64,000 bases of DNA from Candidatus Izemoplasmatales bacterium (GTDB taxonomy: Bacteria; Bacillota_I; Bacilli_A; Izemoplasmatales; Hujiaoplasmataceae), in contig JBMNEZ010000001.1 of the NCBI GenBank assembly GCA_050949045.1, forward strand, positions 1,024,001 through 1,088,000. Direction: 5' to 3'. Position numbers: made by a program. Positions 18,001 to 24,000 of this stretch are shown in pieces; position 1 is the stretch's first letter, and each line of letters begins with the position of its first letter.

Positions 18001-21000
18001 TGAGCCGGGCTCAGATTGCTGAAGGTGGAGACGTTTCTGTTGAAGAGCAACTCGAAATCGCCAATCGTGCCAGAGCGGTTCTTGGCGATGTTGATCTCGA
18101 CATGGTTCTTCTTCGTAGTCTCCTGGTCGTAGTAATCCTCACGATACATGAGGAGAATGATATCGGCATCCTGTTCGATCGAACCGGATTCGCGAAGGTC
18201 AGCCATCACCGGTTTTCTTTCTTTGCGCTGCTCAACGCTTCGAGAAAGCTGGCTGAGCGCAACCACCGGGACTTTGAGTTCTCGGGCCACTTCTTTCAAG
18301 ACCCGGCTGATCTCGGATACTTCTTGGACTCTGTTTGCCTGATTATAGACAGAGCCCGAAAGCAACTGCAGATAATCGACGACGACAAGATCGAGTTTGT
18401 CATCTTGTTTGAGCTTACGGCATTTGCTTCTGAGATCGGTGACCTTGACCGTTCCGGAATCGTCAAAATAAAGATTCAGCCCTGAGAGAACGCTGAGGGC
18501 ATAATGGATCTTATCCCATTCCTGTGGCGAAATTTTGCCTTGTCGCATCCTAGAGTTATCCACTTGCGACTGGCAACTCAGAAGTCGCATCACCAATTGG
18601 TCAACGCCCATCTCAAGAGAGAAAAAGGCCACGTGCGGTCTTGACTGAAGTTTGGCGACATTGAGCGCGATATTGAGCGCAAAAGCCGTCTTTCCCATCG
18701 AAGGTCTGGCAGCGATGATGATCAAATCCGAGGGTTGGAGCCCCAGAGTATATCGATTGAGATCATAGTATTTGGTGTCAAGCCCAGTGATGGCGGATCC
18801 GATCTGGGCTTGTTCGGCAATCTTTTCGACGATGATGTTGGCAACTTCGCCGACAGCCTTGAAGTCGCTGGTCCGTTTCTCTTTGGTGATGCTCATAATT
18901 TCTTTCTCGACATCGTCGATAAAATCGGGAGTGTTGTCGGTTAAATAGGAATCATCGATGATTTTCCGACATGAATCCTGGATCTTTCTCAAAACCGATT
19001 TGTCTTTGACGATGTTGATATAGTTAAGCAGATTGGCGATCGAGGGAACGGCGTCGATCAGACCGGAGATATATTCAATCCCGCCGGCCTTGACAAGGAG
19101 ATTGTGGTTTTCCAACCGGTCGGTGAGCGTGGTGTAGTCGATTTCGATGCCTTCGTGATAGAGAGCTTTCATCGTCCGGAAGATCACCTGATGGTTTGGT
19201 GAAAAGAAATCGGATTCCTGGATTTTATCAACGATTGTCTTCATCGAAGCCGGATCAAAAAAGACCGATCCCAAGACTGCTTGTTCGGCTTCGATATTTT
19301 GTGGGGCTTTTCGTTCCATGGATATCCTCCCTTTTAGGCTATTCTTCTTCCAGCACCTGTAGATCGATAGTCGCAACGACGTCTTTATGGAGTCTGACAG
19401 GCACCTTGAAGACCCCTAGGGAATGGATGTTATCCTCAAGAGCGATTTTGCGCTTATCGATATCGATATTATATACTCTTTTATATTCTTCCGCAATCTG
19501 TTTTGTGTTTACCGCACCATATAGCTTACCCGTTTCGCCGATCTTCACATAGAGTTTGATCGGTTGATTTTCGATATCCGTTTTCAACTTCTTGGCCGCC
19601 TCAAATTCCATGAGGGCTTGTTTGTTCAGGTTTTCCCGTTCTTCCTCGATGGCCTTCAAATTGGCGACCGAGGCTTCGATTGCCTGCTTGGATGTCAGAA
19701 GATAATTGCCGTAGCCGCTGGCCACCTCAATGACTTCACCTTTTTTGCCTTTGCCCCTGACGTCTTTGGTAAGGATGATTTTCATGGTCGTTGCCTCCTT
19801 GAAAGATGTTTCAAGATATGTCTCGATTTTTTTCGCGACCGCCTCGACAGATTCGTTGTCAACTTGGGCTGCGGCGTTATTGAGATGACCGCCACCACCA
19901 AATTGCTCCATGATCACGGAAACATTGAATTTGTCGACGGAGCGTGCCGAGATTGCCACTTGGCCATTCTCGATCGCGCCGATAGCGAAAGCGGCGATGA
20001 TGTTATCGATTTCAAGCAACTCGTCAGCGGTTCTCGCGAGTTGGACACGGTCAGTCCTGATCGAATCCGGAACCAGAACGAGCGCGAAGGTATTGTTGAT
20101 GATTTTCGCCTGATTGATCAGATTTGATTTGGTTTTGATATCATCCAAAGATTCTCTGAGAATCAGTCTGGCTTTGAACGGATCAGCCCCGTAACGCTTC
20201 AAGGTCGCCGCGGCTTCAAAGGTCCTGACACCGGTTCGATAAGTGAAGTTATTGGTGTCGATCATCATGCCGGCGAGCATGATCGTCGCCTCGAACTGAT
20301 TGATGGGCACTTCGATTCCATATAGTTCGACCATCTCGACTACGAGTTCGGAGGAAGATGAGGCATATGGTTCAAGATAGGTCAAAATCGTATCTTGAAG
20401 AATGTTATCGAGACGGCGATGGTGGTCGATAATGACGATATTTTTGGTTTTTTCCACCAATTTTGGCGCTATCGACTGCGTCGGGCTGTGATGGTCAACG
20501 ACAAAGAGCAATGTCTCGGCGTTGGTTAGGTTGGTCGCTTCGTCGGGGTCGATGAAATATTCGAGCAGTTTCACATACTCGCGGTTGAGCATGTCGATGA
20601 CTTTCTGACATGTCTGGTCAATGGCATCGAAGTCGAGAACAATCTTTGCTTTCTTGCCTTGAGCTATGACCATTTCAAGCACACCGATCGAAGCTCCCAA
20701 AGCATCAATATCTGTCGATTTGTGCGGCATGATCATGATGTTGTCAAATTTGGCGATGAAATCGTATATTGCTTTGGAGTTGATCCGCGCCGTGATCTTG
20801 TTGCGTTTTTCGACGGTGTTGCTTTTGCCTCCGAATATTTTCATTGGCTGGTTCTCGATATTGACGATGACCTGGTCTCCGCCTCTGCCGAGAGCTATTT
20901 TCAATGCCTCTTCGGCAAGTTCGCCCAGTTTCTCAGCATGAGTGTCGCTACAGGCAATGCCCATCGATAAGGAAACGCGGATCTCATTGAGATTGGCGAT

Positions 21001-24000
21001 CTCGCCGATGGTGTCCAAGATGGTGAATTCGTCGTCGATCAGTTCGTTGAGTTGCCTTCGGGTTAGATAAATAACTGATTTTTCGGGACGTAGATTGACA
21101 AAATAAATATTATATTTGGAGCACCAGGAATCAAGGGCGCCAAGAAATTTCCCCTGAAGGCTTGACTTATCCTGAAAGTCAAGGTTTTGCGTAGCTTCCG
21201 TAAAATTGTCGAAACTGAGAACACCGATTACCGGCTGGTTCTCCCGCAAGAGCCGTTTGATGTTTTCCCGCTCCGTGACTTCAAACATATAAAGCGCCTT
21301 GTTCTTGGGATAATGGATGATATCATAGTTTTTGCCATAAACGTTGATGATGAATTTGCCTTCGCGTCGCTCGATGCTTTTGCCGAGATTTTCGTGGACA
21401 AGACTCAGTTTGCGGTCGATCAGGACATTAGCGAAACATTCTTTCGCATAATGGTTGGCCCAGACAATCTGGTTGTTATCGTCATAGATCAACATGCCCA
21501 CAGGAAGATAATTTAAGGCGATATCTTCGCTATTGATGAGGCGTTTTTCGAGCAAATTCTTCTCACGAAATTTTCTCTGCAAGGTTTCTATTCGCGAATG
21601 GATCTTTTGATTTGACAAAACCGCTGTCATCAAAACAATCGCAAAAACCGCCAAAATCCCGACATAAACGAGAAAATAAACCAAGCCAAGCGTGTTAAAA
21701 ATGTAGATTACGCCAAAAGCAATCGCTCCCAAAAATAATAGAAGCGCCAGGATTGAAAGGATCAAGGGCCGTTTGTTCATGGATATTCTACCTCTACTTT
21801 AAATCAAAATAATTATATCACAACAGCCATTTAAATACCAAATTATAGAAAAAAAAGACTCATTGAGTCTTTTTTGCGCTCTTATTCCTTGACATATGGC
21901 AACAACGCCATGAAACGAGCACGTTTGATCGCTATTGCCAAGTGTTTCTGGTAATATGCCTTGGTACCGGTAACTCGTCGCGGAAGGATCTTGCCTCTTT
22001 CGGAAATGAATCTTTTTAAAAGTTCGCAATCCTTGAAATCGATATATGTGATTTTGTTATCGGTAAAATAACAGCGTTTGCGTTTGCGGCTGCGAGCACC
22101 GCGAAACGCAGCGGGCTGAGTACTCTGTTGTTTGTTGTTCATGATTGGACCTCCCCTGGTTTAGAATGGTAAATCGTCTTCGATGATGTCGATTTGACTA
22201 TCGGCTTCATCTGTTTTGGTGCTTTCTTGCGGTTGATAATTGTCAGATTGGGATTTGGGGCTGAGAAACACGACTTGGTCACAGACAATTTCCGTCACAT
22301 ATCGCCTTACGTTGTTTTTCTCATCCATGTAGTTGCGGGTCTGGAGTCTGCCCTCGACAGCGACAAGACTGCCTTTGCTGCAGTATTTGCTGACATTTTC
22401 GGCCGGTTTCCGCCAGACGATGCAATCAAAGAAATCGGCATTGCTTTCGCCCTGAGTCTGGCTTGAACTCTGAAACGAACGATTGACAGCTAAAGTGAAA
22501 GAAGCGACCGGAATGTTGCTGTTGGTATATCTGAGTTCCGGGTCTCTTACCATTCTGCCGATCATTACGACTTTGTTCAACATAATATCCTCTCCAACTT
22601 ACTTTTCTTCTCTTGAGATGATGATATGGCGCAGGACGTCTTCCTTGATCTTTATGACGCGATCAAACTCAGCGGTTGCTTCCGGTGTCGTCAAGACGTC
22701 GATGACTACATAGTAGCCTTTCTTCAAATCGGCGATCTCATAAGCCAGTTCGCGCATTCCCCATTCATCGACAATCAACTCTTCGGCGCCGCGGTCAGTC
22801 AGGATCGCGTTCAGTTCGCCGATAAGTGCATCCCTTGCCTCTTGTTCGAGAGACGGGCGAATGATATACATGATCTCGTACTTTCTCATTATTTTTTCCT
22901 CCTTCTGGTCTGATGGCTGCTTTCGCAGCAAGGTATGAAAAATCTCACGGTTAGTAATTATATCACAGTCACTATCTTTTGTCTAGAATAAGCTTGTTCA
23001 GTAAAAAGAAAAAGCAAACACCAATACTATTAGATTATCTTGACTCGCTTTCCTTACGAGGAGAAAATGAAGCCAGTTAGAAAACAAAGTCGGCTCAATA
23101 TATATCAGGTGCTTTAAAGATATCATGAGATTGCTGATCGTGTTATTGTGCTTTTTGGTTCAAATAATGGATCACGAACGCCAAAGCGAAAGCGACAGCT
23201 TGTTTCCTGATCTGGTTTCTCGATCCTCGGAATGTCTTTTTAATGGTAGTGAGGTCATCACCGATCGCAAAGCCAAGACAGACTTCACCAAGTCGCTCTG
23301 ACTGCGATCCAGAAGTCGGGCCGGCATAACCGCTCGTCGCGATAACAATGTTGGCCTTCGTGAGCATTTGCGTATTTTTAGCCATTTCCCCGACCACTTC
23401 AAGGCTGACTTCCCCATAACATTCAATCAGCGACATTGGAATACTTAATGCCTCAGATTTTGCCTTAGCGTCGTAGAGTACAAAAGCTTTCCTAATGATT
23501 CGTGAAGCACCCGGGACGTTGATGATCCGCGAGGCAATCATTCCCCCGGTGATTGATTCGGCAGTCGAGACTAGAAGATTTCTGCTCAGAAGACACTCAT
23601 AAAAAACTTCTTCGAGCGGCTTTCCCCCTTTGGATACGATCCACTTCTGATACATACCGACAAAGGCGCGGTTGAGGGTGTCAAATTGTTCCCGCTCGCG
23701 AGCTTTTAAAATTGCTTTAATCCCGTCAATGGTCTCTTTGAACTCAATGCCTTCAGCTATATTAGCTTGATGAAGCATCTTTCCCATAGCGACAGCCTGA
23801 TCAAGATCGATGCCAAAGAGGATATAGGTTTCTTTGAATCCGTTTTTAGAAGATGCCATACTCCGCTACTTCCCTCCTAGATGTTGAACCGGAAATGAAA
23901 GATGTCTCCGTCCCTCGCAACATAATCCTTGCCCTCAAGACGGTACTTGCCCATCTCCTTTGCCTTTGCCTCACTGCCCGCAATTAGAAGATCCGCAAAA

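Follow-up and report, generated by a model that had tools for sequence, protein, structure and literature searches.

The Candidatus Izemoplasmatales genome analysed here carries, in the studied window (the whole 64,000-nucleotide stretch of contig JBMNEZ010000001.1), a gdpP-rplI fusion that may well be a two-product gene, yielding free ribosomal protein bL9 as well as a c-di-AMP phosphodiesterase GdpP whose bL9 tail is now a needed part of the enzyme in a non-ribosomal job. Judged from sequence comparison, this is the best explanation overall, with a probability of roughly 0.55. One mRNA would give two products sharing one stop: initiation at the gdpP start would lead to membrane-bound GdpP with a bL9 tail, and initiation at the internal AGGAGG/ATG to free bL9 of the usual kind, destined for the 50S subunit. 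Since the fusion, the tail would have served stability, assembly or regulation of the enzyme, independently of the conserved ribosomal bL9 signature.

The features of the locus are compiled in Table 1. The single stop-free frame and the six Pfam domains described in the survey's finding were recovered at the same residues, and a single match of the L9_N profile confirmed this to be the only bL9 of the genome.

Table 1. Features of the gdpP-rplI locus (positions in the window)
Feature	Position	Strand	Basis or remark
gdpP-rplI fusion ORF	19339..21780	-	813 aa, stop-free frame
Promoter-like site, Sigma-70-type (10/12, with TG)	21812..21841	-	Consensus match only
Probable membrane anchor: two hydrophobic segments at the N-terminus (about residues 6-55)	21616..21765	-	Sequence and hydropathy scan
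PAS_GdpP domain, residues 84-168	21277..21531	-	Pfam
Degenerate GGDEF_GdpP domain, residues 189-311	20848..21216	-	Pfam
DHH domain, residues 347-505	20266..20742	-	Pfam; H353, D357, D359, D429, D452-H453-H454 present, D508 just past the domain
DHHA1 domain, residues 574-657, GGGH motif	19810..20061	-	Pfam
Internal Shine-Dalgarno (SD) AAGGAGG, in-frame Lys-Glu-Ala codons	19794..19800	-	Anti-SD pairing; 8 nt to the ATG whose A is 19785
Internal start codon ATG, Met666	19783..19785	-	Sequence
bL9, 148 aa, nested gene and chimera tail	19339..19785	-	Pfam (both L9 domains) and model
Downstream gene, presumably dnaB	17961..19319	-	Sequence recognition, without a family scan; own SD; ATG 19 nt past the fusion stop

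The promoter-like site ends 32 nt upstream of the gdpP start and is one of 11 sites found in a consensus scan where 6.9 were expected. A scan for internal promoters returned no convincing site, the one 9-of-12 match (19937-19910) being at chance level. The junction is covered by a contig of metatranscriptome run X1 (19492-20066) with eight substitutions, none of them listed within 19757-19887, and no gaps; the RNA runs consist of contigs only and carry no level, start or strand. Among 64 genomes of the order, 63 have one L9_N match, 62 of these in frames of at least 576 aa, and the remaining frame (G024) is broken off by the contig end. Since the X1 contig spans the junction and 62 genomes of the order have long L9 frames, the fusion is not an assembly error.

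In the GdpP part, the domain order of anchor, PAS, degenerate GGDEF, DHH and DHHA1 is as in the membrane c-di-AMP phosphodiesterase GdpP/YybT (PDB 5xsi, 5xsp, 9n0l), and the fold matched with a TM-score of 0.92 by target. Alignment with 9n0l and 5xsi, the former a solved chain for which a literature search found no paper, confirmed the metal-binding DHH residues and the GGGH motif. Across 139 aligned fused proteins, each of the DHH-domain residues listed in Table 1 is unchanged; in the set with the GGGH motif, two positions are at 138 of 139. A diadenylate cyclase gene was present in 6/6 genomes tested. The GdpP part is intact and is a putative hydrolase of c-di-AMP to pApA, known from its sequence; it differs from GdpP/YybT in its 148-aa bL9 tail. 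That tail has both L9 domains, the linker helix and the conserved residues Gly24, Lys87, Tyr89 and Gly90, and its model superimposed on the solved L9 1div with a TM-score of 0.89 by target. It differs from canonical bL9 (RplI) in being coded inside the frame of another gene and in losing its signature in the fused copy after duplication. The free form would bind the 50S subunit. In the AlphaFold2 models the domains were confident and pTM was low (0.58, 0.47), so that the tail position is not fixed by them; bL9 strand 1 begins about two residues after the last DHHA1 helix. When a complex of GdpP (residues 74-661) and bL9 was predicted, the score was 0.02 against a mark of 0.32, and the result was counted neither way.

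The spacing of 8 nt between AGGAGG and the bL9 ATG was as first described; the start codon, however, is Met666 and not Met664. Pairing with this genome's 16S tail amounted to −11.2 kcal/mol for the internal SD versus −7.9 kcal/mol for the own start of gdpP, and the internal SD was the stronger one in 89 of 133 genomes. At all 172 single-copy junctions read, the anti-SD pairing was at least as strong as −5 kcal/mol (median −11.0); among the 2639 ATGs elsewhere in frame in these genes, 10.5% reached that value, which places the internal SD beyond chance. Start codons at these junctions were ATG (159), GTG (12) and TTG (1), with no others, and it was found that valines in the start position use GTG in 12/12 cases and the sole leucine uses TTG. 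At codon −4, family f1 has GAG in 28/28 against a background of 20%. Different residues spell the SD among families (KEE, QEE, GGG, EGD), and therefore the nucleotides are what is kept. SD and start codon are, in sum, conserved beyond protein-level need. As both are kept at single-copy junctions and, where a free rplI exists, the SD is always and the start codon mostly lost, free bL9 is very probably made from the internal start, in support of the nested gene proposed in the survey. Codon usage as evidence for stronger expression of bL9 was dropped, the difference between the bL9 part and the rest being weak (C-ending fraction 0.306 versus 0.273, higher in 108/171; CAI 0.708 versus 0.701). The published supplements searched contained no peptide data for the long or the short product.

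The fused frame was present in 255/255 L9-matching genomes from eight families, with zero unfused. In an 80-row tree, fused rows formed one clade (SH-like 0.925) adjoining the unfused family f5. In outgroups (G065, G080, G106, G118, G123, G291, L259, L261), the gdpP stop lies in frame, 0-2 codons before the rplI ATG. A single origin by loss of such a stop would make the internal SD/ATG the former rplI start. The 6-nt spacer accumulated 235 parsimony changes, and neutral simulation put a stop into about 17 of the 171 tips, with none of 200 runs stop-free. The spacer thus stayed open despite the neutral expectation of stops, which argues that the fusion is kept by selection, a claim of the survey that the census, the simulation and the dN/dS values below all support. 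G065, G080, G291 and G592 were ruled out as further fusions by an in-frame stop; frames of 397 aa in G267 and G339 were also rejected, that of G267 (the one read) not being a GdpP frame. Acholeplasma and phytoplasma relatives probably belong to the same fused clade, by similarity to the PRK14538 model. For fusions elsewhere, the class-wide L9 profile applies to the matches listed, 252 further matches lying outside the list. Of 32 loci (L259-L290), 30 are unfused and mostly clostridial; of the other two, L260 falls into the fused group and L281 has no L9 match. Of 285 long proteins bearing an L9 domain, the 120 best matches were all close GdpP fusions; as the result covers these 120, fusions elsewhere are possible.

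Ten genomes from at least three lineages carry a separate free rplI downstream of the fusion, resulting from three or four independent duplications; six of the ten belong to one genus. Here, the fused copy has lost the SD in 10/10 and the start codon in 8/10 cases, and all ten tails are of full length (146-159 aa). The dN/dS of the fused tails was 0.12 (0.06-0.21) for G192/G198, 0.16-0.29 for five g119 pairs, and 0.54, 0.58 and 0.73 for distant duplicate pairs, the interval of the last reaching 1.09; in g128, either decay of the tail or rapid change at an early stage may lie behind this. Full length and low dN/dS imply that the chimera is probably selected too, and selection likely acts on the tail as a part of GdpP.

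What these chimera-only tails retained and lost bears on their function. Gly24 is present in 172/172 single-copy tails, 46/46 unfused proteins and 10/10 free copies, and Gly90 in 170/172, 44/46 and 10/10, respectively; chimera-only tails have either residue in 0/10. Tyr25, almost invariant in the other bL9 examined, is likewise found in 0/10. Gly24 and Tyr25 presumably touch 23S rRNA, and a literature search found no paper on Gly24 contacts. The fold core (Asp8, Gly13, Ala35, Gly86, Gly124) is present in 10/10 each and 94% of the hydrophobic columns are kept, while the mean net charge is −0.2 versus +6.3 in free copies; in G192 and G198 it is not lowered (+5, +5 versus +5, +4). Few positions, and weak ones, are kept in fused but not in free copies (Ile19, Ile36, Glu41, Leu88, Val144, Glu146), and g119 free copies already have Leu where Phe91 would be. 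According to published work, the N-terminal domain of bL9 binds 23S (PMC3335287), and Lys83, Lys89 and Phe91 bind 16S (PMC10897467).

The survey had seen the purpose of the chimera in docking on the 50S subunit by the bL9 tail; c-di-AMP breakdown would thereby be linked with ribosomes, or ribosomes with the membrane, and the fusion would be kept for that reason. The invariant Gly24 of single-copy genomes and the lack of any reversion in 255 genomes would agree with this, and an N-terminal extension may be tolerable, bL9 chains in solved chloroplast ribosomes being 196-200 aa long versus 148; part of that extra length is transit peptide. Yet the free protein needs the signature residues anyway, the tail sits with little slack behind the last DHHA1 helix, and free bL9, from the mostly stronger SD, would probably fill most sites. 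Above all, chimera-only tails do not keep the signature of a ribosome-docked enzyme: released from ribosomal duty, the tail loses Gly24, Tyr25 and Gly90 in every lineage, and on average its positive charge, and is kept nonetheless, which argues against docking as its job and makes that purpose unlikely. A non-ribosomal role is the somewhat better supported one: a part in the structure or regulation of GdpP fits better than docking. The pattern of the duplicate lineages need not hold in this single-copy genome. In single-copy genomes including this one, Gly24, Tyr25 and Gly90 are intact, and docking could occur there. A still more speculative idea is that the tail in single-copy genomes has two mutually exclusive partners, GdpP and a 50S lacking bL9; capture by such a 50S would switch the phosphodiesterase, c-di-AMP would report ribosome supply or collisions at the membrane, and in duplicate lineages the sensing would be gone and only the GdpP-bound state left.

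As doubtful as docking is a tail that is merely carried along, where the open frame keeps the rplI/dnaB region translated and its mRNA protected, and the tail is constrained only to fold and not to drag GdpP to degradation. A kept core with a lost surface is what this predicts, dN/dS is higher in distant pairs, and in seven of eight f19 duplicates the tail stop lies about 20 nt or less from the free-copy start, overlapping it in G429. On the other hand, in single-copy genomes a stop in the spacer would bring back the outgroup arrangement of two coupled genes and was never seen; in-frame deletions could shorten the tail, as in none of the ten; and in G192 and G198, whose free copy starts about 65 nt past the tail stop with its own SD, the tail is nevertheless at the low dN/dS given above. 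Rho was above cut-off in 0/5 genomes tested, so that Rho polarity is unlikely. That only the long protein is made, with free bL9 cut out by a protease and the SD a relic, would gain from internal initiation being deduced here from sequence; it is highly improbable, since a relic would not keep GTG for valines and TTG for leucine, nor be preserved at every single-copy junction and lost in every duplicate. The two-product gene with a tail needed by the enzyme is the reading we retain.

The fusion as such is already catalogued as NCBIfam NF011110/PRK14538 (putative bifunctional signaling protein/50S ribosomal protein L9), with the same whole-length architecture. Residues 35-812 matched model positions 54-835 with 653 bits, below the curated cut-off of 707 bits, which makes the protein a homologue by descent and not a formal member; the open frame recurs in those genomes of the class that score best. 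The PRK14538 description is silent on an internal start, two products and a role of the tail. Added here, from sequence, are the conservation of SD and start at the junctions, their loss after duplication, the selection on the tail and the loss of its signature. A literature search among open-access papers found no study of the GdpP-bL9 fusion, and word searches revealed no mention of it in PMC10931766, bioRxiv 10.1101/2021.01.31.429008, or PMC4014445 with part of its supplements.

The locus, with a long and a putative short product per frame and an internal SD within coding sequence, resembles infB, cheA, clpB and T7 gene 4. In-frame internal starts give two co-terminal proteins in these genes (IF2 alpha/beta for infB, L/S for cheA). 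What sets the fusion apart is that its short product would be an entire protein from a different family, with a gene of its own in relatives, and that the two jobs have been parted again by duplications.

The two-product reading explains where a broad clade of Bacilli with small genomes could obtain its soluble bL9 when annotation gives the gene as one 810-aa membrane protein. It is also a warning that annotation hides one or the other product: database names for the whole fused protein are mostly 'ribosomal protein L9', and A. laidlawii is scored without L9 in one published table. Duplication has provided a rare natural experiment at least three times: a ribosomal protein seems to have turned into a needed domain of a second-messenger enzyme, and the residues lost or kept after duplication offer ready mutations for c-di-AMP turnover versus the ribosome.

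The gdpP-rplI frame reported as a survey's finding was confirmed as a single stop-free reading frame of 813 aa, with PAS_GdpP, GGDEF_GdpP, DHH, DHHA1, L9_N and L9_C domains at the residues previously assigned; the sole L9_N match of the genome falls within this frame, in agreement with the claim that it holds the only bL9. The internal Shine-Dalgarno (SD) site was recovered at the claimed distance from its ATG, which encodes Met666 and not Met664. A contig from a separate RNA library spans the junction gap-free. The GdpP catalytic residues align with those of solved GdpP chains and are invariant or nearly so among 139 aligned fused proteins, and a diadenylate cyclase gene is present in the same genome as well as in 5/5 relatives tested. 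In AlphaFold2 models, the individual domains are confidently predicted and hardly any linker separates DHHA1 from bL9, with no fixed arrangement. Upstream, between an rpsR-like ORF and the promoter-like site of the fusion, lies an A/T-rich inverted repeat, a possible terminator that the scan did not list.

Features of the gdpP-rplI locus (window coordinates)
Feature	Position	Strand	Remark
gdpP-rplI fusion ORF	19339..21780	(-)	813 aa, no stop
Internal Shine-Dalgarno AAGGAGG	19800-19794	(-)	ends 8 nt before ATG at 19785
A/T-rich inverted repeat	21850-21876		possible terminator
rpsR-like ORF	21882-22142		

One L9_N match was found in 63/64 genomes of the order, always in a long frame except in G024, whose frame is cut by a contig end. 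Families f12 (28/28 genomes), f15 (31/31) and f20 (8/8) of the class sample have uninterrupted frames of 811-848 aa, and family-wide searches gave an L9 match in 40/41 genomes of f19 and 85/86 of f28, the latter count including four frames of 636-790 aa with unchecked contig ends; every matching genome carries the fused copy. Overall, the fusion occurs in 255/255 L9-matching genomes from eight families. The genes are unfused in f5 (6/6 genomes), in the remaining outgroups examined and at 30 loci of mostly clostridial origin. An 80-row FastTree phylogeny, comprising 52 of the 172 genomes with a fused copy only, all 10 with an additional free copy and 18 unfused rows, groups all fused rows in one clade adjoining f5 with an SH-like support of 0.925. 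Eight outgroup loci have an in-frame gdpP stop located 0-2 codons 5' of the rplI ATG, so that a single point change could create the fusion; the internal SD would then be the former rplI site. Two fused proteins have apparent in-frame losses within their catalytic region, which may be assembly artefacts: 772 aa with a shortened DHH domain in G010 (L089:218-2533) and 759 aa without a DHHA1 match in G428 (L198:1649-3925). In three genomes of f27 (G592, G191, G233; L294-L296), where gdpP and rplI are unfused, GdpP frames are each interrupted by lone TGA codons at positions expected to encode Trp, which suggests that TGA is read as Trp.

The junction was read in 182 of the 255 fused genomes, and anti-SD pairing was computed against the 16S tail of the window's genome, with -5 kcal/mol or better as the mark. 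All 172 single-copy junctions reached it (median -11.0 kcal/mol), versus 10.5% of 2639 other in-frame ATGs; rplI starts did so in 14/16 unfused Bacilli and 30/30 clostridial cases. The internal start codon of these 172 junctions is ATG (159), GTG (12) or TTG (1), with no other Val or Leu codon at this position. The amino acids encoded across the SD vary from family to family; in f1, its Glu codon is GAG in 28/28 genomes versus 20% in the remainder of the gene. The internal SD is stronger than that of gdpP itself in 89/133 genomes.

Ten genomes (six of genus g119, two of g128, two of g125) possess a second, free rplI just downstream of the fusion, arising from at least three independent duplication events on the 80-row tree. 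Here, the fused copy lacks the SD in 10/10 cases (median -1.95 kcal/mol) and the start codon in 8/10 (AAG, ATT, GCG or ACT instead), and each free copy has a good SD site. A signal retained in every genome that depends on it for bL9, and given up once a free copy can supply the protein, is best read as functional; that free bL9 arises by proteolysis is very improbable. G427 (L197), a single-copy genome placed among the g119 duplicates, has a tail with start codon, SD and Gly24 that resembles free copies, reflecting either two duplications in g119 or collapse of a tandem pair. G423 (L191, L192) carries a third L9 gene on the small contig C38 beside the fused and free copies, possibly foreign, genome contamination being 5%.

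The chimera is probably under selection too. Across a tree of 171 fused genomes, 235 changes are needed in the 6-nt spacer; when neutral evolution was simulated at a matching rate, ~17 tips acquired a stop and 0/200 runs were stop-free, a test that, its genomes having been picked as fused, leans on the 255-genome census without an unfused member. The bL9 tail is open over 146-159 aa in all ten duplicates, where ~5% of single changes would create stops. Its dN/dS (NG86, bootstrap) was 0.12 (0.06-0.21) for the pair G192/G198 and ranged over 0.16-0.29 among five closely related g119 pairs, close to what gdpP (0.12-0.18) and the free copy (0.09-0.23) show; for distant pairs it was 0.54, 0.58 and 0.73 (0.47-1.09). 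A folded passenger retained for coupling is considered unlikely; a Rho match was found neither in the window's genome nor in G184, with 0/5 genomes tested above the cut-off.

Docking of the chimera on the 50S subunit via the tail, as the survey had proposed, appears similarly doubtful. Gly24 and Tyr25 of bL9 are presumably 23S contact residues. Gly24 is present in 172/172 single-copy, 46/46 unfused and 10/10 free copies versus 0/10 chimera-only tails, from which Tyr/Phe/His25 is likewise gone; Gly90 (E. coli Gly92) follows with 170/172, 44/46, 10/10 and 0/10. The neighbouring aromatic residue is missing in the ten tails and also in six g119 free copies; its E. coli counterpart, Phe91, is described in PMC10897467 as the key 16S contact in disomes, and PMC3335287 assigns 23S binding to the N-terminal domain. 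Asp8, Gly13, Ala35, Gly86 and Gly124 are retained in 10/10 chimera-only tails, as are 94% of hydrophobic columns. Mean net charge is -0.2 in these tails versus +6.3 in free copies, with no change in G192 and G198. This implies that a tail freed from ribosome supply keeps its fold and drops the ribosomal bL9 signature.

Genes with an in-frame internal start are known as a class. The GdpP-L9 fusion itself is already known and has a curated model (NF011110/PRK14538), to which the present protein scores 653 bits, below the cut-off of 707; the highest scores are those of f15, which suggests that this family may include Acholeplasma and phytoplasma relatives. The neighbours of the window that bear names belong mostly to Izemoplasmatales. 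Literature searches, with subscription literature and bioRxiv supplements outside their scope, yielded no publication dealing with the internal start or with the duplications, and the available portions of PMC10931766, bioRxiv 10.1101/2021.01.31.429008 and PMC4014445 gave no mention of them. In a supplement table of PMC3139596, A. laidlawii is scored as lacking COG0359 (L9) and having COG3887 (GdpP-like), the pattern that would follow if L9 escaped annotation through the fusion. The supplement of PMC7585042 lists a non-synonymous change in ACL_RS00960 ('50S ribosomal protein L9') of a ciprofloxacin-selected A. laidlawii strain.

Most likely, two starts in one frame would yield a low-copy membrane GdpP-bL9 and an abundant free bL9. 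With a probability of about 0.55, the tail would act in stability, assembly or regulation of GdpP rather than in ribosome binding; the few independent duplications, the weaker selection in g128 and the weakness of the fusion-specific residues count against this reading. The lineages with a free copy may also have dropped a tail function that the window's genome still holds.
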